A DNA stretch of 64,000 bases from the NCBI RefSeq assembly GCF_004010195.1, contig NC_057711.1, forward strand, positions 75,519,163-75,583,162, given 5' to 3'. The position numbers and the translations under genes are program-made. This document shows, one piece after another, positions 8,113 to 63,100 of this stretch (the first letter of the stretch is position 1; every line of letters starts with the position of its first letter). The stretch is from Chiloscyllium plagiosum. Its lineage: Eukaryota. The notes under the pieces are model-generated. The model was not told where the DNA came from. It saw only the letters and a list, made by a program, of their open reading frames with translations, and did not search any database.

Positions 8113-9569
8113 TTCAGCCCTTCAAGCAGCATTTAGACCTGTTTCTGTATCAAAGGCTACCTCTGAATAAGTGTTAATACTGCAACCTACTCAGAACAAT
8201 GCCCACCTTAACTCACTCAAAACTATGGAAAGATTATAATATTAATTAGCCCTTAGCAACCATCTCTCAGGTCCTGAATAGGATGCAGAACATCAAACAG
8301 TTTCATCCACCAGCATGTCCTTTCAGTTTGCTGTTCTTTATCTCTTTGAAATTTCCTTATACACTACCTATTTCTTTAGCACTGTACTACCTATTTCTGA
8401 CTTTTATTTCGGACTACCATCTTGTACTACATGTATAATTTCTCCCTTATTTAGATCGTACAGGTCGAGGATTTTTACTAACATTATTAACTTTAAACAC
8501 AAAAGGACTAACACCTCTTCATTATGCAAGCTCAGACTGGATATTCTAATCCCATCAGGAGTAACAGCTAGCATTTGACAAGTACTTAAACCATCACCTG
8601 CTTCCACAGGACAAGATGTCACGCAAACTTATGTACAATAGATAACAAAGATGTGACCATAGCGCTATAATTTTAATGTATGTAAAAACTGTGTATAAAT
8701 GAGGCAACTGTAATTCTGTACTTTGAATTCCGTCACTGCCTCGAACTGTGCCACTGCTGATGCTCAATAAAGAGGCGATTTTCACCACTCACTGATTTCA
8801 GTCATTATTGAACTTGATGCCACATTTGTGTCACAATCTCAGGATAGCACAAAGCTCTTCACAGCCAACAAGTGCAGTCACTGTTACAAATTAGGAATGA
8901 TGGGCACTGATTTTGTACAACAAGGTCCCAGAACTAACTATTTGATGAGTGACCAGATCCACAGAATTCTCAGGCTCTGACTCTGTTTCTTTAGCAATAG
9001 CATATAAAAGGCTGAACCATTCTTGTCAATAATTATTCCCAGGTTGCTGATAGTGGGGGCTTCAGCAATGATAATGTTATTGAATGATGATTAGAATCTC
9101 TCATGTTGCAGATTATCAATGCTTGATACTTGCCACTTGTCAGTCTGAATGTTATCCAGGTCTTCCTCAATATGGGCATGGATTGCCTCAGAATTTCAGG
9201 AATCCAGCTGATGCTGAACATTCTGCAATAATTTAATCAACCCAAACCTCCCCACTTCTGACCTCATGAAGGAAGAAAGATAATTGATGAAGTAGCTGAA
9301 GATGGTTAGTCTGGAAAACTCTGCTGAGGTAGTGGTGTTCTTACCCCTAGACTGAGAGAGCCAGGTTCAAGTCCCACCTGCTTCAAATGAAAAAAAAATC
9401 CTGAGATGTCCTCCAGAGTTGTACTGCAATTGATAAAGCATGATTTCCAAAAACTATAGCTTTTTGCAAGGAATGACTGCAACAGTGGGAGGATTTTACC
9501 TGTAATTCTAGCTTTGCTCAAGTTCCTTGATGCAACAGTTAGTCACAGTTACCTTGATATCAAGGGCAG

Positions 9570-9766
9570 GAGAAAGTGAGGATTGCAGATGCTGGAGATC
9601 ACAGCAAAAAAGTGCGGCACTGGAAAAGCACAGCAGGTCATGCAGCATCCGAGGAGCCAGACAGTCAGCATTTTGGGCAAAAGCCCTTCATCAGGAAGGG
9701 TCGACTCCCCTGCTGCTCGGATGCTGCCTGACCTGCAGTGCTTTTCCAACGTCATACTTTTCGACT
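9570..9766. mobile_element. Fold-back PLE family 1 mini-insertion
   Basis: Antisense PLE end followed by an inverted arm; TSD TTGATATCAA(G/T)GGCAG at 9554-9569 and 9767-9782. Confidence 0.8.
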
Positions 9767-10317
9767 TTGATATCAATGGCAGTCATGCTGACAGTTCAGA
9801 CTGTTTTAGCCATGTTTGGAGAAGTCTGTATTTATGTCAGGAGCTGAATGGCTCTGGCATTAGTCAAACTGAGCGTCGGTGAGCAAATTATTCTCGTCCT
9901 TACAACTTGCTCACACTCTATCTCAAGCATAACTTTCATCACTTTGCTGATGGTTGGGATGAGGCACATTGGGCAGTAGTTGGTTAAATTGAAAAATCCA
10001 TTCAGCACTTCAGGCCGCACTTGCTTCAGCTTCATCTTGTCTTCCGCAACATTGAGGATAGGGATTTTTGTGGAGTCATCTATTTATTTATTTAACTTTC
10101 CATCATCATTCACAGCTAGCTGTGAGAGGACTGCAGAATTTTGATTTGATCCCTTAGCTGTGGGATCACTTAGTTCTCGAAATTCATTGGGGTTTCCCTG
10201 CACAGGTTTGATCCTGCTGGCTATGGTTGAGGCCTGAGGGCAAAAATGAAGGGAGGTTTTCTCCTCCTAAAGCAGGCTGTCAGTGAGTTAAAGCTTTAGA
10301 TTACCACTCCTGGAATG

Positions 10318-12884: not shown

Positions 12885-13611
12885 GTTAAATGACAAGTCA
12901 AGTTTTAACTTTAATTAAAACAATGGTACAGAATTTATCACATTTTATACATTATATACTGCGAAAGCAGATAAAGTGTCCAAATGTTAAATTCAGAATA
13001 TATTAAAACACAGGATGTTAAAACAACACAAAAGGTTGATTCATAAAGTCTAAACACAAATAACACTTCAGATATAGATCATTTATTAGAATTAAAAGTG
13101 AATAAAATTAGGAGAAAAGAGGATTTATATGTTACTTATGGTATTAAAAAAGGCAATTGTTAAGTTTAAAAGTATATTTTAAAAAGCAGTGGCAATAAGG
13201 TATTTTTAGTTAGGCGAAAGCATTTTTTAAAAATAGATTCCTAAAAAGAATTCCAAGTTGATGTGGATAAAAATGAAAAGTCGACAAGGAAAATAGAGAG
13301 AAAGTAAAGGAGGCAGGTGTGGCCCAGAGTTCCTAGGTATTCAAATCAGAATTGAACAGAATACCAGGAGAAAAATGATGGTACTTCCAGTCCTTTACTC
13401 ATTCCCATTCGAACACATATAAAATTGGCCCCTGAACTAGCTCCGGAAAGTTGAATGTTAATTTCAGGAACAATACCATAACTTTCTCCTTGGTATCCCC
13501 CTCAAAATGCTATTGCTCTTCTTTCTGACATTTGTTTCTAACACACCTCAAATATTCTGTGTAGTTTGCTTCATCTTTCCCTCCCATTACTGTGTTTTTC
13601 TCTTTTAAAAG

Positions 13612-13744
13612 GTGAGGGAAGTCATATGGCAACAATGTGCAATTCAGGTCACGCACGCAATACAGTACGTAGTCGAGTTTGCCAAACGCATTACAGGGTT
13701 CATGGACTTGTGTCAGAATGATCAAATACTCCTCCTCAAATCAG
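13612..13744 (+). CDS. RORB: RORB coding exon (LBD helix 3-4), [45 protein letters not shown]
   Basis: Pyrimidine tract then aaAG|GTG; TCAG|GTatgg; 133 nt; nuclear-receptor signature FAKRIxGFxxLxxxDQIxLLK. Confidence 0.97.
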
Positions 13745-14549
13745 GTATGGGTTGCAAATATATTTCAGTAATGAGTAAGGTGTCAGTTAAGTTTTGGGTT
13801 ATGGCAAAAATACTTAAGAGGCAATGCAATCATTTTCTGTGATTACTTTCACAAGCAAGCACAATTATGGAGTCAGTGATACAATGCTCTTATTTCAACT
13901 TTGATCATATCTTCTGTTGTCAAATGATTCGCTTTTATCTTAACCCAATGAAAGTTAAGATGAAATGTAAGACTGAATTGTATAGGCTTATGCTGGTAAA
14001 CATCTGGGCTTTGCTTCCCTGTGAATTTTCCTCTGACATCTACACTGTCACAAGGAATTGAAGGCATTAATGCACGCTAATTCAGGCATTAAGCAACACC
14101 TACCAAACATTCCAGTCAAAGTAACAACTCTTTACCCAATTGGATTAACATACATAACCCTGAAGCTTGTTCATAATTCAAGGCAATCGTTCTGATCCAT
14201 GATGTAGCTCAACACAATCGCCTTTGCCACACCCCCATTAATACCCTTGGATAATAATTTAACTTTTGAAGTTCAGATATCATTCTGGTCAGTCAAACTG
14301 CACTTATCCTTCCTAATGTGTGTGCTCAGAACTGTCAGAGCATGACTGATGTGGTCTATCCAATGCTTTGTATAGCAGGCAGCAGATACATAAGAACACC
14401 ACTACCTGCAAGTTCCCTTCCAAGCACTCACCATCCTGACTTGGAAATATATCACTGTTCCTTCAGTGTAACTGGGTCAAATCCTGGAACTCCATTCCTA
14501 TCAGCATTGTGAGTCTACCTACAGCACAAGGACTGCAGTAGTTCAAGAA

Positions 14550-39228: not shown

Positions 39229-40019
39229 CCTTTGCACCAAAGGTTAAACAGTAGTAAATATACTTATTTTTGAAAGTTGCTGCCCTAATTCATTTAAGAT
39301 CATATGAGTTCTATTGTCTGAATGAGCTAGCACAGTATGCTGCTTCATTCTTGCAATATTCTTCAATGTCACCATGATCATTACAGCTTTAAACAAAATG
39401 ATTAAAAATTGCTGTTTACTTGAAGCAAAACAAACTTTCTTGTCCCCTAAAAATCAATCCTTCTTGGCTCAACTGTAAAGCTACACCTTGCAAAGTGCTT
39501 GAAAAATGAGAGATTGTTGACCAGTTAATGGTCAAATCCATGGAAAATTACCCATGGCGAAATCTCAGATGTATAAAAATGTAAAATTGGCACTATAATC
39601 TGAAAGTCAGATCTGCCTAGGAACAGCACTAAGATAGGAGGTTTGAGTGTATTTCCGGGGTGGAGACCGTACTTGTCAGACAACTGTACTGCACTGCAAA
39701 GCCAAATTTTGAATGATCTATAAAGTGAAAGTTTTATACTTGATTTTGAATCCCATTAATTTAGTGCTGAGACTCCCTGCTGCTGATTCTATTTTAAAGT
39801 CGGTAGTTTGATTTGCACTGAGAGGGTCATGAGCAATGCTTGACTCATGCCTGCATGACTCTACGGAACTCATGTGTCACTGGACATAGAATAACGAAAG
39901 AGGTTGCAACTTTACATCAGAGTCACGACACTAACTCCTGAAGATTATGAACAAAATATTGTACTCACAGAAGTATCTCACCTCAGAAAATGTCAGTAAA
40001 TGGAATAAACAATAACCAG

Positions 40020-40435
40020 GAGAAAGTGAGGTCTGCAGATGCTGGAGATCAAAGTTGAAACTTTATTGCTGGAACAGCACAGCAGGTCAGGCAGCATCCA
40101 GGGAACAGGAGATTCGACGTTTCGGGCACAGGCCGAAGAAATGTCCCAACAAATGCTCACTCAATTGTTCAATTGCTGGTAAGCCCAGCAAGAACCCGGG
40201 ACATTAGTTATTCTATTACTCCTCAGCCATGAGCAATAGCAGTTGTATGGTGACTGTTTAATATGATCTATCGATCAGGGTTATGCCTGATGAGGTCAGT
40301 GTTCATAATTCATACTCTACCATTTTAGTTCAGAAACTTACCAGTCTCTTGATTGAGGAAAATTCCATCAAATTGGCTTTTAGGAATTTGCTAGTTGATA
40401 TAATTTCCTGAAGAAGGGCCTGTGCCCGAAACGTC
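40020..40435. mobile_element. Fold-back PLE family 1 insertion enclosing a 265-bp copy of 40981-41245
   Basis: 17-bp TSD GAATAAACAATAACCAG at 40003-40019 and 40436-40452; inverted PLE arms; 40142-40406 identical by eye to 40981-41245. Confidence 0.8.
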
Positions 40436-40437
40436 GA
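40406..40437 (+). ncRNA. Minimal hammerhead ribozyme (PLE family 1 variant)
   Basis: tc-CTGAAGA-a-gggc[ctgt]gccc-GAAA-cg-TC-ga. Confidence 0.68.
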
Positions 40438-43400
40438 ATAAACAATAACCAGACCATCTATCACTACAGGTGTACAAAATCTCTTAAGGCTGTAATGGTT
40501 AAAATTGTTTTTGTGGCTAGATTTTATGCATAAGTGACATAGTTGTCTTGTTAATGACAATCACTGTTGGATGCAGTTATTGCACTGTTTCCCACTCAGG
40601 GACTTTGGTCGTCAGAGGAAAGGTTTGGAATGCACAACTCTTGAGGTGAAAAATATCCCTGGACAAGGCCTTCAGTTCTGAGAGACATCAGGAAGATGGG
40701 CCAGATTTTAGGATACATTATATTATTTTGCACAACGGAAATCCTTCAAAATAATTGAATGTATCTTAAAAGATTTAAACAAAAAAAAGACAGTTAGAAA
40801 GTCAAAATAAAAAGGGGATAAAACAGACAATCTGAATGATAGGTTAATGCTTCAGTTGGAATTAATCATGAATAATATCAATCTAACTTCCCTTTTTGAT
40901 CCTTCTTGACACGTTAATATTATTTCAAAATGAAAAGTTACAGAAGCATTAACATGGAAGGGTTGATTTTCATTACGTGTTGTCCCAACAAATGCTCACT
41001 CAATTGTTCAATTGCTGGTAAGCCCAGCAAGAACCCGGGACATTAGTTATTCTATTACTCCTCAGCCATGAGCAATAGCAGTTGTATGGTGACTGTTTAA
41101 TATGATCTATCGATCAGGGTTATGCCTGATGAGGTCAGTGTTCATAATTCATACTCTACCATTTTAGTTCAGAAACTTACCAGTCTCTTGATTGAGGAAA
41201 ATTCCATCAAATTGGCTTTTAGGAATTTGCTAGTTGATATAATTTGACCTGAGTTGTTCAGGCTGCATCAGGGAGAAAAGTAGATTCAACATTTGAAATG
41301 GATGATCTTGTCAGAAGTGTTGAAGTGTTATTAGAATATAGGAATGGATCTGATGAGGAGACCTTCAAAATATGCAAATTAATCCAAATTGGAAATAGTC
41401 AGAAATAATTTCAAACCCCCACCATCCCCCAATCCTATAGTTCACATTCCTTTGTGTAGCACAGAGAATAGGCAACATTTGAATTCTGTTCATGCCCGTG
41501 TATGCATACACTGTGAATGGAAATATTTATATCCCACAACTGTTTAAGCTGGCAGTTAGGTGTCATGAACTTCCAATCATGTGTGAATTTTATAGGTTTT
41601 ATCTGATCAAATGGCAGGACCAATATTTGATTAGTTGGCTCATGAAGTGTAAACTACACTGCCACACTGCATTCTGAACCTTTTTCATACAGTGCAATGT
41701 GTCTATGTTTAAAAAAAAGGCAATTGAAAGGGTGCAGTAACTTAATTCATTGACCATAATTTGTTCATGCCCTTATCAGAATCTGAATCAAACCAATTCT
41801 AATTTTATATGCAATCTTATTGATTTTGGCATGATACAGTTGAAATAACCTGTTTCCAAATCTTGCAGTGACTGCAAAGAAGGATTTCCTATGTGCAAAC
41901 TAAAATTTAGCAAATAACATTTGTCGTATGTTCTATTGTCTTGTGTGTGACAAACAAAAAAGGCTTCTATTGAAGTTTAGAATTCCAATCATACACTAGA
42001 TACAGTAAGCAATAATCTAAGGCATTTGTTTGGTGAAAATATCTGCCATGTAATTGTAGAAAACACAAGGTTTGCTTTGCATGCTTTGCATATCTTTATA
42101 ATGTACTAAAATTCTGGTCCTTGTTTTCTATATATTTGTCCAATCTGTATTTGATAAAGCTGTAGCATCAAGTTGCTGTTGTGATTCTCTATCCACTCTG
42201 TTAATAGATTCTATAAGAATACAGGCCATGAGTTCAAATTGGCACCTGGCTTTATAATTTTCTGATAAACAAAGACTCATTTTCTGAATAAATAAGAGGC
42301 AGGATGAGATAAATTAATGCAATTGCCTCTCCTGTGATCAACATTTTTTATAAGAGAGATCTAATTGTAATTAGAATATTGTGGGCTTTATCAGGATTTT
42401 TTTTTCAACAAATGACAAACAAATCCACTGACAGGACAGTCCATCTTAACTTATAGCTCCCAAAGAGTTGAAAATGAATGTTATTAATAAATATGCAAAG
42501 GATTTGGGAAATCAGTAAAAATTATGAGTAAGCTGGCAGTTGTTTCTCAGTCCTTTGAGGTTCAGGCTGCATAAACTTACAACTTCTCACAACGTTCACC
42601 CCAGTGCTGAGAATCCTTTTACTTTTTATGAATGAACAATATAATTCTGGAGTTGGCTGCATGTCCTCTATCTTGAGTGCCATAAATCACGCTAATAAAG
42701 ATGTCTGAGAGGTATGGAATGTTTTTCGCACAAATGTAATAGACAAAAGGAATGGGCAGTCTCAGGTGCCGTTATGTTCTTAAAGTGAGTTTTTCAAGTT
42801 TCTACTGTTCATGCCCCAAAAACAGTGGATCATAGAATTTCACTGATCTGTCCATTACCTGTTCATTGTTGCACTTGAAAAATCACATTTCATTGATGTG
42901 CTGTGCTAAATGAACATGCTGAATATGCCTATGAGGTGGCTGTATTTGGATGAAATAAAATAAAATCATATCATTTCAGAAATTTTCATTTTCAGTTACA
43001 ATGTTTTACGATCTCTTCTGATTTCCATGACTATTGCATCATACTTACTCATTTCTGAATGACTATGGCAGCACATCAGTACCATTCCTTGATTAAAACT
43101 GGATTGTAGATTTTACATTTTACTGAAATTTATATTCAACTATTAGCATTTTATTTTCTATTTTACTGAATTGTAACCCTGTTAACAGCCTTCAAAACAT
43201 GAATATTTGTAATGATTAATAAGAAGTAGTGTTTAAATAAACTGGATATTGATTGTAATGGTATGATTCTACATTAACTATTACAGAATAGATAGGAATA
43301 TAAACTATTAAAATTAAACAGAATTCATGTTCCATTTTGAAAATAGCTAAATTGTTAATCTTCTAAAATCATTTACAATATTACAATCCATGGATACTTT

Positions 43401-49119: not shown

Positions 49120-50030
49120 TATAGAGTCATAGAGTCATACAGCATGGAACCAGACCCTTTGGTCCAACCAGTCCATGTCAACCATAATCCCAAACTAAAC
49201 TAGTCCCATCTGCCTGCACTTGGCCCACTTCCCTCCAAACATTTCTTATCCGTGTACTTATCCAAACGTCTTTTAAACATTGTAACTGCACCCACATCCA
49301 CTACTTCCTTTGGAAGTTCATTCCATACATGAATTACTGTCCATATAAAAAAGTTGCCCATCACATCTTTTTAAAATCTTTCTCTTTTCACTTTAAAAAT
49401 ATGCCCTTCTAATCTTGAAATATCCCACCCTAGGGAAAAGACATCTGCCATTCATTTTATCTATACCCCTCATGATTTTTAAAACCTCTATAAGGTCACC
49501 CCTCAACCTCCTATGTTCCAATGAAAAAGCTCCAACCTATCTAGCCTTTCTTTAGAACTCAAAATCTCTATTCCCATCAACATATTTCTGGTAAACCTTT
49601 TCTGAACACTCTCCAATTTAATATCTTCCCTATAACAGGGCAACCAGAACTGGACACAATATTTCAGAAGAGGCCTCACCAACTTCATATATAATCTCAA
49701 CATAATGTCCCAACTCCTATACATAAAGGTCTGAGCAATTAAGGCAAGTCTGCTAAATGCCTTAACCACCCTGTCTACCTGTGATGCAAACTTCAAAGAA
49801 TTATTGACCTGAACCTCTAGATTACTGTGTTCTACAACACTATCATAGGAGAAAGTGAGGACTGCATATGCTGGAGATCAGAGCTGAAAATGTGTTGCTG
49901 GAAAAGCGCAGCAGGTCAGGCAGCATCCAAGGAATGCCCGAAGCGTCGATTCTCCTGTTCCATGGATGCTGCCTCACCTACTGCGTTTTCCAGCAACACA
50001 TTTTCAACACTACCATAGGCCCTACTTTTA
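49120..50030 (-). mobile_element. HER1/CR1 LINE 3' portion
   Basis: ORF 49503-49796 (LVRPLLKYCVQFWLP); (atagagtc)n tail at 49120-49140. Confidence 0.88.
49850..50004. mobile_element. Fold-back PLE family 1 mini-insertion inside a HER1/CR1 copy
   Basis: Inverted arms; TSD CAACACTA(T/C)CATAGG at 49835-49849 and 50005-50019. Confidence 0.8.
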
Positions 50031-51688: not shown

Positions 51689-52335
51689 CTAAGTATCAAA
51701 CAAATGTGTGAAGATTTTGTTAAAGAAAATTACGTGTGTGGAAAATAATCAAAGAGATGTTATTCATATTTACTAAGCATGTTTTCAACTAGATTTATTG
51801 ATTCTTCAATAGTCTGCTGTATAAGCTATGCATTTCAAACCTTCTTCCAACATTCTGGAATTTAAGAACAAAGAACTTGAACCGCTGGGATATTTCTTGC
51901 AATTTCTCGTTATAACTTAAGTAGGAGATCAGCAGAACCCCCACAGAAATTGTATGAATTATTCAATTATCTGAAGGTCTGGGGGATAGGTAGAGGACAC
52001 TAGGTTTCATGGTGGGATTAGGTGGTGCTTTTGGTTTATGTGGGATGCTGTATTATTAATTTCCCAAACTATCATTTTCACAATGGACTGTCTCTCAAGT
52101 GAGCATTTTAATGACAACTTGCAATTGCTTATTGAATGGAAACATATGTTGACATAAGGGATTAAACACTTCAGGGCTAAGTACCAAAGTGAATGTTTGC
52201 TTTCATAAGGGGCTTGTTGGAGGGCATTGAATGCATTGGCGTTTTTGCATTATCCAAGAGAGTATGTTTTTTCAATAATGATATTATCAATAGACACTTG
52301 CAGCTTGTCTTCTGAAGTTTGCTCATGGTGAAGAC

Positions 52336-52960
52336 CACAGATTCACCTGCACCTCCACACATATCATCTATTGCATCCTCTGCACCCGATGTGGCCTCCT
52401 CTATATTGGGGAGACAGGCCGGCTACTTGCGGAGCGTTTCAGAGAACACCTCTGGGACACCCGGACCAACCAACCCAACCACCCTGTAGCTCAACATTTC
52501 AATTCCCCCTCCCACTCCACCAAGGATATGCAGGTCTTTGGACTCCTCCATCGTCAGACCACAACAAAACGACGGTTGGAGGAAGAACGCCTCATCTTCC
52601 GGCTAGGAACCCTCCAACCACAAGGGATGAACTCGGATTTCACCAGTTTCCTCATTTCCCCTCCCCCCACCCTGTCTCAGTCAAATCCATCAAATTCAGC
52701 ACCGCCTTCCTAACCTGAGATCTTCTTCCCGACCTCTCCGCCCCCACCCCAGTCTGACCTATCACCCTCACCTTGACCTCTTTCCACCTATCACATTTCC
52801 GACGCCCCTCTCCCAAGTCCCTCCTCCCTACCTTTTATCTTAGCCTGCTGGACAAACTTTCCCCATTCCTGAAGAAGGGCTTATGCCCGAAACGTCGATT
52901 CTCCTGTTCCCTGGATGCTGCCTGACCTGCTGCGCTTTTCCAGCAACACATTTCCAGCGC
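52336..52960 (+). mobile_element. 5'-truncated Penelope-like retroelement with open GIY-YIG endonuclease C-terminus (52336-52713)
   Basis: Open frame FTCTSTHIIYCILCTRCGLLYIGETGRLLAERFREH...VAQHFN...RRLEEERLIFRLGTLQPQGMN (IIY...CxxC...YIG, R and E motifs, GMN); hammerhead in the 3' part; candidate TSD TGAAGAC at 52329-52335 and 52961-52967. Confidence 0.9.
52867..52898 (+). ncRNA. Minimal hammerhead ribozyme (PLE family 1)
   Basis: Same motif as 144-175, ~155 nt downstream of the GIY-YIG ORF stop. Confidence 0.72.
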
Positions 52961-55516: not shown

Positions 55517-56471
55517 GTTCCAGTGTGTTGCATTGCAAAATGTAAGTACAGCAAGTGGTTAGGAAGGCAAATGGAATGTTGTCATTTATTGTAAGGGGAA
55601 TGAAATATTACAGTATGGCTGCTTTGTGATTGTTGTGTAAAACTTTGGTTTGACCAAATCTAGAGTAGTGTGTACAGTTTTTGTCCTCTTATTTAGGAAT
55701 GGATGTAAATGCATTACAGGCAGTTCAAGGAAGGTTGACTTGTCTGATATCTAGGATGGGGGATTACCTTGTGAAGAAAGTTTGGACAGGTTGGACTTCT
55801 TTTCATTGAAGTCTAAAAGTGACATTATTGTGACAGGCTAAATACTAAAAGGGTAATACCGTTGTGAGAGAGATTGGAAAAATCAGTGGACTTGGTTTAA
55901 GACTGTAATGAGAAGGATATTTTTCTTTCTGAGGGATATGAGTCATTAGAACAGTCTTTCCCCAGAAAGTGACATTGACTAGTCTTTAAATATTTTTAAG
56001 GCAGAAGTGAATACAGCCTTGACTTTAAGAGAGTCTGCAGAGGGATTTGGGCAGGTTAAGTGAGTAGACAAAAAAATTGACAAATGGAATATAATGCAAA
56101 AAAATGTGAAGGTTATGCCTTTTGGCAGAAAGAACAGATGAGCTGAATATTATTTAAAGAGAAAGATTGCAGCAAGCTAAGAATAAAAGGATTTGAGAAT
56201 CACAAAAAGCTAGCATCCAAGTTCTGCATGTAATAGGGAAGGCAAATGGAATGTTAGCCTTCATTTCAAAGGAAATGAAATATAAAAGTAAGAATGTTCT
56301 GCTAAAACTAGGTTAAATATCACAATGCCAGGTTATAGTCCAACGGGTTAATGTGGAAGCACTAGCTTTCAGAGAATCACTGCTTCATCAGTGCTACAAA
56401 ATAAACCCGGTGGACTATAACCTGGCATTGTGATATTTAACCTAGTTTTAGCAGAACATTCTTACTTTTAT

Positions 56472-56637
56472 ATTTCCTCCCACAGTCCAAAGATGTGCAG
56501 GTTAGGTGAATTGGTCATGCTAAATTGCCCATATAGTTAGGGGGAATGGATCTGGGTGGGTTACTCTTCGGAGGGTCGGTGTGGACTAGTTGGGCCGAAG
56601 GGCCTGTTTCCACACTATATGGAATCTAATCTAATCT
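56472..56637 (+). mobile_element. HE1-type V-SINE 3' half
   Basis: tttcctcccacagtccaaagatgtgcaggttagg...aatctaatctaatct. Confidence 0.8.
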
Positions 56638-57189
56638 CAAAAAAAAAAATTAGGACATTTAATAAAGAAAGAACCCATGGTGTTGGAGTTAGTATATCAG
56701 CTTGGATAGAGGATTATCTATCTATTAGGTGACAGAAGTTGGGACAAGGAATCACAGGGATCATGTTACTTACAATAGATATTAATGATTTTGATGAGGA
56801 TGAAGAAAGTGAATGTACTATAGCCAAGTTTGCAGATGACTTGATAGTGCTTCCACATTAACCCGTTGGACTATAACCTGGCATTGTGATATTTAACCTA
56901 GTTTTAGCAGAACATTCTTACTTTTATATTTCATTTCCTTTGAAATGAAGGCTAACATTCCATTTGCCTTCCCTATTACATGCAGAACTTGGATGCTAGC
57001 TTTTTGTGATTCTCAAATCCTTTTATTCTTAGCTTGCTGCAATCTTTCTCTTTAAATAATATTCAGCTCATCTGTTCTTTCTGGTTAATGGGTTAATGTG
57101 GAAGCACTAGCTTTCAGAGAATCACTGCTTCATCAGTGCTACAAAATAAACCCGGTGGACTATAACCTGGTGTTGTGTGATTTTTAACT

Positions 57190-59815: not shown

Positions 59816-59956
59816 GTAGTTGGTCAGCTCTGGGGTGGTAAGTGGCCTAGTAGTTTTTGCTCAACCCTGGAGGATACAAATATACAAGAGAAAACCTTCC
59901 ATAAAATACAGAAAGACACAAGCCGTTGTAATTTTGTTCAAACACCCCACACTAAC

Positions 59957-60162
59957 CTTGCAAGTCCAGCACTAGTAGTTCCCCTCGTGTGTATTCATAC
60001 GACCAGTGAGAAAAAGCTAACATGGTCTCCTCCAGCAGATTTGTCGGAATTAACTCATCTCCATTGTTGTTGTTGTACTTTCTGAACTGACCATTCATGT
60101 ACTTTTCCATTGTCAACCACTGATTAGCAGAATGGCAATAAACCAGGAAAACTTCCAAAAAC
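59957..60162 (-). CDS. TRPM6: TRPM6 alpha-kinase exon, (R)[68 protein letters not shown](G)
   Basis: 206 nt; donor G|GTtagt; acceptor ttatgAG|G; alpha-kinase motifs [14 protein letters not shown] and [15 protein letters not shown] is TRPM6-like (TRPM7 has HSAGQWFAVEEC), and the gene is syntenic with RORB. Confidence 0.93.
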
Positions 60163-63100
60163 CTCATAAAAGAAAGGAGTGACATTTTTAGTTTATTAAA
60201 GTAAATCCTTTGCCTTTTCTCAAGGCGTCATTTCACAGATCTCCTGATAGTTGGGCCCTGCCTCATGTCCTATTGAGCCATAAAGGCCTCGATGAGCCTG
60301 GGAATAATGCCCATTTTTGATAAATTAGCTGATCTCAGATTAGATGTCAATAAGAGCCTAACAGTTGGCCTCAGCTTTACTCAGCTACTGAGGTGAAAAA
60401 AAGCAGGGTAGGATTTCCATTCTGTGGCACAAAGGACAGATGCTATGCTAAAGTGTCAAAAGTCTGAATCCTGCCTACAACTGGGTTAATGAAAGCAAGG
60501 CAGAATGCTGGTTACCAATCTACCACCAAGAGGCAGGTAGACAACTTAAATACAAGACAGCTGGATATCCCTTGATTCATGAAGTTGAACCTAGGTGAAG
60601 GACTGTTGGATCAAGAGATATTTGTCTTTCTAGTTACCTGTTCAATTCAGTGTGCTTGTTTTAACAAACCCATAATTAGGTACCATTTCCCCTCAAACCC
60701 GTTCTAATCAACCACCATCCCACACTCCTGTTCCCACCCCCATTCTACAATGCCTTGATCTGTTCCCACAGCTTTCTGATCTGCCATGACAACCAATGGC
60801 TCTGAATTCTTCTACGCCCCACCTACGGCCACCGACCTTCCCTATTCCCCAAGAACCTGATCTCCCCACCAGGCATCCTACTGTCTCCCATCCCCAACCC
60901 TAAGGCTTCCAATCTCCCACACTTCACACCAGGCATTTGATCTTTTCCCGTCATAGGCCTCTGACCTCCCCTAAGGGCTTTGACCTACACCCTAGCACCC
61001 TCCGATCCTTCAGGCCACCATAATCTCCACCACCCCCAACTCATTTTATGACAATCTTCCTGAAACTATTCCACACATCCAGAAGTGGACTCTCCCCATC
61101 CCTTGGGAGCTCAGGATTGGCAGTGGAATCACATACAGATGAAGTGAATACTCCACAGTATGCGATGTGTTCGAACTGAAGTCTTTGCCACACTTTAAGG
61201 TACCCACTGCTTCTTGTGGGTCAAGAAAGTTATAATTTCTTCTCTTAGCTTTACCAAATGATCAATACTCTATGGAAGTTATTCAAGAACAAATATGACA
61301 GTCCTGAATTGACCGATGAAGGCTCAATATGTTTCAACACGAGTTATTTCAGGAAGATCAGTCAGTACTTATTTACTAATAAAGCTTAGGGCTTACAAGT
61401 AAGTCTGTAACCTTTATAGCCCAAACCCTCCAGCATATCTGTGCCTCTTGAGGTGCTCACTAAACTGCTGCTCCGGTCATACAGTCTGGATTCTTCTTGT
61501 GAAACATCTCCACCTCTCTTCTCTCCTTGAAGATGTTCCTTCAAATTAATCTTTAAAGACTGGTTGAATACCATCTCAAGTGGTTTGGTATCAGTCATTA
61601 TCCTCTCTGCATCCCAATGCAATGGATCCAATTCTCACATTTGATTTTCCCACTTTCCTCTCCCAACCTCCCCTAATAACCCCCCTTAAGGTTTATTGCC
61701 CAAGACTCCAAAGCTGTGTAGTGCTAATTCTGGCCGAACCCCTTGACTCAGTTTGGACAATGCTCTTGACTAAATGTGGTGGCATTCCTCAAATGACCAC
61801 AGACTCCTTTCACTCAATTAAGAAGGACTTTCAGATGTGGCCATTTGCTTAGTCTTGGAAACTGCTGGCACTTGCTGTAAGTGTGACATTGATGTAGTTT
61901 GGTGCCATAGGGGGAATATCCACCCGTTGACTGTTCAGTGCGGAAATGCATGACAAGCTACCTGACGTTTTATCTGTGCTAAAAGGCAGGCTGAAATGCT
62001 GTCTGTCCAAGTAAACACAAAGTACATGAATGTAAGAAAGCAAATTGTAGCCTATACAGACAGACAACATGGATGAGTGCCTTTGGTGCAAAATGAACTG
62101 GTAGGAACGTTGCAGTGTAAGGTGTTGGTGAATTCCAAAGCTGATTGCTGAAGTGGTTTTAAAAGTAGTCCAAGATTGGCTATGATGATGCTGTGGATAG
62201 AGAAACAAAGACAGTCACTGCCCATGACACATGCCCTCAAATGTCTGTGGATGATGGCTGACATGGACACCCAGAAAAGATACCAGAGAGCTGCAGCCAA
62301 TAGGTAACCACTCAGGCTTTCAGATTGGGAACTGACACCAGCTAGTTTCTCACCGGTATCTGGGAGAATTGCAAAATACAAATAAACTGGGTGAGATTAA
62401 CTAACAATGAGATGGAGAAAGTGAGGACTACATAATACTGAGATGCAAATTCATAGAAATCAGGTCCTCACTGCTTACCAGCAAGTTTCTCACCAAAATG
62501 ACAATACCTTAAGGGAAAACTTTTTTTCTCAATGTCAAGAATCTCATTTTAATATTGTTGCCACATTCTCTCATATTTCTTGTTTTTTTCCAACCGCCCA
62601 AATGCTGGGAAAAGTCCGCCATATGAATATGACACTGTGCATTCCCCAAATAAGATTCAATCCGAAAATCTATCAATAAATTCCTGAGTGTTTTGTGCTG
62701 TGAGCACAAAGATGTGTTTTTAACTGAAAAGTGTAACTATTTTAATGTCTAGCATAAAATTTATGAAGAATATTTGAACTACCTTTGCTACTGTGTCACA
62801 AACTGAGATATAATGGAAAAACTGTGATATGAGAAGCAGTTGGTCAAAACATAAGATACTTTGCAATTCCCATTGAAATATAAAATCAGACAATGAAAAT
62901 CTTCATTTGAAATTAGCTACCGGCTCACATTTTACACAAATGTTATTTAACAGCATATTCTTTTCTGCACTGTGCCATTTCACAATATTGCCATTTTGTT
63001 GTTTTATTGGTGGGTTGGTAAGTTAGCCAATGTATTCTCCTTACTACAAGAGGAATTTTGTTATCCTGGTTATAGCAGCAATCATTTTATGTTGGAATTC

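Follow-up and report, generated by a model that had tools for sequence, protein, structure and literature searches.

Retroelements are known to copy DNA lying close to their target, and published cases come from LINE-1. The available part of 10.1101/2024.08.27.596794 reports 22 templated insertions among ~3,600 LINE-1 insertions, with templates that are typically <250 bp long and within 15 bp of the insertion site, and the available part of PMC11702581 describes three LINE-1 insertions with nearby genomic templates. According to the same portions of both sources, twin priming of LINE-1 gives inverted arms sealed by microhomology. For Penelope elements, the portion of PMC3846280 at hand presents host DNA between the pLTRs in Adineta vaga, bounded by a TSD and proven by an empty site on the other allele. 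The accessible text of PMC8557442 and PMC11167929 treats the completion of Penelope-like integration, and the origin of the inverted ends, as an unresolved question. In titles and the beginnings of abstracts, a scope that leaves most subscription papers outside, we found no local templated capture described for Penelope elements.

Here we analyse a window of 64,000 nucleotides from Chiloscyllium plagiosum and confirm that a TSD-bounded Penelope-like insertion within it holds a real, derived copy of local DNA. The event is the Penelope version of a known event type, with more distant templates, and it recurs at a low rate. As in the LINE-1 templated insertions, so far as the available texts describe them, non-element DNA near the target has been copied, in the Penelope case probably during integration, and such copying is rare. 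Within the same limits there are three differences: the LINE-1 cases come from somatic cells or cell lines and the Penelope case from the germ line; the Penelope source is at a distance of 528 bp, with a range of 162 bp to 3 kb across the family, and the LINE-1 templates are typically within 15 bp; and both arms of the Penelope case copy the same element end, unlike those of LINE-1 templated insertions.

The likeness to Adineta vaga consists of unrelated sequence between terminal repeats, a TSD and an empty site. The portion of PMC3846280 at hand gives no local source for its non-coding captures, whereas the source in the window is next door and stays put; the gene case is explained there by transposition in trans to a new place. 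The accessible parts of PMC8557442, PMC11167929 and PMC4209133 describe endonuclease-bearing Penelope units which, like ours, have an inverted 5'-truncated copy, a TSD, a minimal hammerhead and a 30-40-bp tail at one end; a long end is paired with a short end in 56 of the 82 two-arm insertions surveyed here. Unlike the usual units in those texts, the arms in the window are parted by host DNA, and the sense arm begins at the cleavage position of the hammerhead instead of at the usual short end.

Structure of the insertion

The whole insertion between the TSDs measures 416 bp and has two outward-facing Penelope-like arms. The 17-bp left TSD (40003-40019) is identical at 17/17 nt to the right one (40436-40452). 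Next to it lies the antisense arm (40020-40134, minus strand), the long 3' end, with its tail, of a young Penelope-like subfamily, which stops in hammerhead stem II and shows 0/115 mismatches against the young copy L007. The linker that follows (40135-40141, plus strand) consists of GAAGAA, 6 nt that open a recurrent arm-to-arm seal, and a final A that fits neither element nor source. Then come the captured copy (40142-40406, plus strand), 265 bp in the same orientation as its source, and the sense arm (40405-40435, plus strand). This arm is unusually short, retains TTCC, which is the commonest arm start, contains the minimal hammerhead core and ends at the expected cleavage position, and the stretch 40405-40439 again has 0 mismatches to L007. 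Both outer junctions overlap with the target: AG at 40018-40019, the last 2 nt of the TSD, also matches the element end, and GAAT at 40436-40439 fits both element and TSD. The coordinates given for the TSD, both arms and the copy in a preliminary description of the locus all hold.

A short sense-arm end of the window type occurs in 1 of the 82 two-arm insertions, a count in which the ends of 21 could not be placed by script, and among the loci from L103 on no other arm joins its flank at the same point. Priming of this short arm on a cleaved RNA end is disfavoured; it would leave the 4-nt GAAT match to chance.

The copy is identical at 265/265 nt to its source at 40981-41245 (plus strand), which lies 528 bp past the right TSD at the ancestral position, and the 3.56-Gb genome has the 265-bp sequence nowhere else. 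An exact, same-orientation copy of nearby DNA, as first proposed, is thus confirmed. The 2-nt microhomology claimed for the right copy junction is also present, the last 2 nt of the copy (TT, 40405-40406) being common to the sense arm; at the left copy junction we looked for microhomology and found none. Sequence foreign to the element thus lies inside the TSD and repeats DNA close to the target. No element end abuts the source, which adjoins the target and stays in place, and a sister species has a single copy, so that 3' transduction is rejected and the initial view of the event as unlike 3' transduction is borne out. The locus, a single one, is without sign of function.

The hammerhead on the sense arm had been called intact. 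Its letters at 40408-40435 give the core CUGANGA, an extra base, stem II, GAAA and a palindromic minimal helix III, and the minimal core with an extra base after position 9 is like that of the minimal Penelope hammerhead described in the available part of PMC4209133. The core letters therefore stand. Stem I does not, being cut to 3 pairs (TTC/GAA) with its 3' side in the TSD; with these 3 pairs only, the motif folds no better than shuffles (z -0.46), and the Rfam hammerhead models have no match in the window. Across five copies the stem is kept and the loop varied, and one copy has a G-to-A change in the core.

The loop variant CTGT had been taken as private to this insertion and as a sign of a single template. 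This does not survive the genome count: CTGT has 12,252 exact matches (6139 + 6113) and marks a large young subfamily. A GIY-YIG endonuclease domain (PF01541) lies upstream of the terminal repeat in locus L052 (E 3.9e-6) and occurs also at 52294-52710 of the window (E 1.1e-4); the window insertion itself is non-coding. An RT-like frame with a YIDD motif in L083 is a candidate only, for which we claim no clade. Two older insertions of this family in the window, at 9567-9774 and 49847-50008, also have two arms, joined directly.

The linker can be read from other copies. The arm followed by GAAGAA has 156 matches in the genome and continues as the sense arm in 11/11 other loci examined; since GAAGAA recurs as an arm-to-arm seal, the linker in the window is best read as an aborted seal. 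GAAGAA is present twice in the window insertion, as in other multi-step seals. In L255 repeated partial seals precede a final one at TTCC, and in L207 a piece of sense arm stands directly before the captured DNA. The further suggestion that the hammerhead stem had a part of its own in the jump is not supported, for GAAGAA after GGCC starts an ordinary seal and other captures leave the arm elsewhere.

Arm-arm junctions in L044, L053, L055, L207 and L255 contain short fold-back or repeated element pieces, some of which start at hammerhead stem II. One complex arm-arm junction, ~255 bp long where a TSD was found, is the same in 13 loci (L105, L107, L110, L118, L126, L130, L132, L135, L149, L163, L166, L169 and L177). 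This sharing indicates that a two-arm unit moves whole, and that not every two-arm insertion is made anew.

Evidence from read-built contigs

Contigs built from reads were examined for four of the 21 runs listed, three of the same species (X15, X3 and X1) and one of a sister species, organism B (X9). In X15, a 66-nt piece (40106-40171) spans the left junction with 0 differences at a depth of 151.7, a second piece is exactly 40142-40406 at a depth of 368.8, and a third leads out of the sense arm into the source, with a depth of 199. These depths are additive (151.7 + 199 ~ 368.8), as expected of a collapsed two-copy repeat. The right-junction piece is absent among the matches listed; the 265-nt piece ends there and the depth rises in that bin. 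X15 is possibly related to the sample of the assembly, but gap filling still cannot create words in reads. As to the checks first proposed for the internal junctions and the depth over the two copies, these contigs hold the left junction and show a summed depth over the copy.

In X9, one 11.5-kb contig has the TSD sequence once and the 265 bp once, the latter at the source position; this is the empty site sought in a relative. As this empty site comes with one copy at the source, the copy inside the element is the derived one. Within the species, one X1 contig stops at 40019 and a second begins 13 letters ahead of 40436, which equals the 30-letter overlap expected of an empty allele. X1 thus likely carries the empty allele, and the insertion is likely polymorphic in the species. 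X3 has both element ends and an unbroken source but no piece for the capture junction, a pattern that contig cleaning may explain but that an allele lacking the copy would likewise give. The capture junction is accordingly found in one of the three same-species runs examined (X15).

Other captures in the genome

We surveyed an unselected set, the first 100 matches listed of the 12,252, taking 30 as loci of 3 kb, which are unable to reveal far sources, and the remainder within 58 stretches, each of 10 kb. Two further sets were chosen for non-element letters before the arm. The first took 100 of 380 matches (18 new loci and 60 of 63 single sites, with three paired sites skipped), and the second 100 of 148 matches (29 new loci and 40 of 48 sites without a preceding TTC). 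Altogether 314 arms in 232 loci yielded 82 TSD-bounded two-arm insertions, with TSDs of 11-17 bp. Eight of them belong to one identical-junction lineage, 60 are without a non-element run, defined as at least 15 nt outside the element library built for the survey, and 14 have one.

A local source was found for 7 of these 14 runs (the window included and L161 doubtful), 251-642 bp or 2.8 kb away, and none of the seven matched any of the 231 other loci. Beside the window (direct, 528 bp away, 265 nt), direct captures are seen in L058 (485 bp; 89/135 nt; 97.8% to source), L113 (642 bp; 373 nt; 98.4%), L114 (463 bp; 16 nt) and L207 (251 bp; 98.1%), and an inverted one in L246 (597 bp). L161 is doubtful, its spacer being repeat-like with two local matches. 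Two single-arm insertions with no hairpin also have local copies at their 5' junction, direct in L128 (~3 kb) and inverted in L216 (162 bp). The scan for TSD-flanked inverted arms with a local spacer, which the preliminary description had proposed, thus found further cases, with sources on either side, in both orientations and within 0.16-3 kb. A fixed source distance of ~500 bp, suggested by the first cases (463-642 bp), is broken by L216, L207 and L128, and the rule that the source is always 3' of the TTCC-starting arm by L207.

In the unselected set, 1 of 40 two-arm insertions is a capture (95% range 0.06-13%), or 1 of 88 insertions. All scoreable copy-to-arm junctions (7/7) have 1-4 nt of microhomology, with a mean of 2.4 against 0.39 by chance; the excess may owe a little to the choice of sites with A/T ahead of the arm. 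Local matches are strongly enriched at arm junctions when all hits are counted (13/167 versus 106/7702 random places, p = 1e-6) but weakly after removal of the window and four tandem-like loci (6/147, p = 0.018); the strictest count, also without L161, gives 5/147 (p = 0.057). Run on other loci as a cruder control, the same test yielded 5.4 hits per pass versus 14 observed.

Several candidates were rejected as captures: L050, L206, L225 and L174 are tandem-like or long direct duplications across the site, and L185 is an old related element. In L174 one arm stands between 290-bp direct repeats with 97% identity, either a very long TSD or an adjacent templated copy. No local source was found for L053 and L055, which hold fold-back pieces of the element; for L069 and L212, whose runs are common to other loci and likely element interior, a 180-nt run of L069 being unplaced; for L073 and L074, both containing N gaps; or for L117, whose run is common to L156.

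Proposed mechanism and alternatives

Our preferred reading, to which we give a probability of roughly 0.7, is a young two-arm Penelope-like insertion whose copy was made during integration, by re-priming on the nearby chromosome before the second arm was sealed. The Penelope protein has been reported to cut and extend both target strands in vitro, from two internal RNA sites, with initiation that needs no homology to the target and with hammerhead cleavage dispensable (PMC11167929). The tail and the two initiation sites described there agree with the pairing of one long and one short end in most two-arm insertions of the survey. Both 3' overhangs of a 17-nt staggered cut could then prime cDNA and give the two arms. 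The top-strand cDNA would start the usual seal on the other cDNA (GAAGAA), release, copy 265 nt of the right flank, made accessible through resection or unwinding or supplied by the sister chromatid, and finally seal on the end of the other cDNA through TT. Alternatively, the bottom-strand cDNA may prime at TT on the source and run leftwards, with the same product. The copying polymerase could be the RT of the element or a host end-joining polymerase such as Pol theta. The choice between them, like the timing of the copying relative to integration, is an inference.

A more specific version, possible but doubtful in our judgement, is that the polymerase of the element itself seals the two cDNAs via repeated jumps along the exposed target flank. 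If so, most host DNA at seals would come from within a few kb, ~1-2% of young insertions would be small local duplications, on the order of 100 in the subfamily, and some composite copies would spread host DNA as new elements.

Returning to re-priming during integration, junction captures would record which templates a nascent strand can reach, in terms of distance from the cut, side and strand. The ~12,000 near-identical young copies offer enough events for mapping such templates, and the in vitro system of PMC11167929 is suited to asking whether the element RT suffices alone. Penelope-like elements are also marked by these captures as a source of small germ-line duplications.

Among the rivals, later repair survives best, then an RNA template, and last an artefact. 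In the first, the two-arm insertion came first and a later central break was patched by host repair copying nearby DNA. In its favour, the inverted arms, perfect over 23 nt, might fold into a hairpin, the copy is placed exactly in the centre between the arms, and X3 has the two element ends but no capture junction. We nevertheless consider it improbable: zero differences in both arms and copy place insertion and copying close in time, the single-arm, hairpin-less L128 and L216 carry a similar copy at the 5' end, and the sense arm retains TTCC, with GAAGAA twice as in other multi-step seals.

A jump of the RT onto a nascent host transcript of the locus, in place of DNA, would suit the RNA-templated Penelope RT, and the region may be transcribed, having exon-like hits at 13609-13839 (plus strand) and 59955-60227 (minus strand). 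We regard this as very unlikely, given sources on either side, in both orientations and within 0.16-3 kb, no spliced capture among the 9 local cases and no evidence here of transcription at 40-41 kb. The exon-like hits, found among the 80 of 123 long frames that were scanned, are a nuclear receptor ligand-binding domain and an alpha-kinase, respectively, and face each other; we take the pairing to recall RORB and TRPM6.

Mis-filling of an assembly gap between repeat-ending contigs with local reads, raised at the outset as the competing explanation, could draw on the many N gaps inside elements of this assembly, on several sources lying 463-642 bp off, like a library insert size, and on the 100% identity of the copy, but it is scarcely tenable and, as far as X15 shows, largely refuted, since contigs made solely of reads span the left junction at a depth like that of the flank and show additive depth over the copy, L113, L207 and L058 differ from their sources, two captures are inverted and source distances range between 162 bp and 3 kb.

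Composite copies and other duplications

In the unselected set, 4 of 88 insertions (L086:4093-5024, L010:690-1621, L087:4411-5006 and L023:1407-1724) have up to 932 bp in common at 99.7-100%, part of it non-element DNA that abuts the short arm, and are cut at different lengths. This group is likely either a composite element that spreads host DNA or an assembly collapse. Distant pairs of loci share ~0.9-1 kb of other-repeat DNA inside or beside young element parts, namely L057:4072-5138 with L083:4880-5946 (910 nt at 100%) and L117:973-1922 with L156:3473-4422. Within the window itself, flank and repeat DNA is duplicated in inverted orientation, perfectly over 239 bp (56126-56364 and 56845-57083, in 56126-57188), beside pieces of another repeat family; this duplication looks recent.
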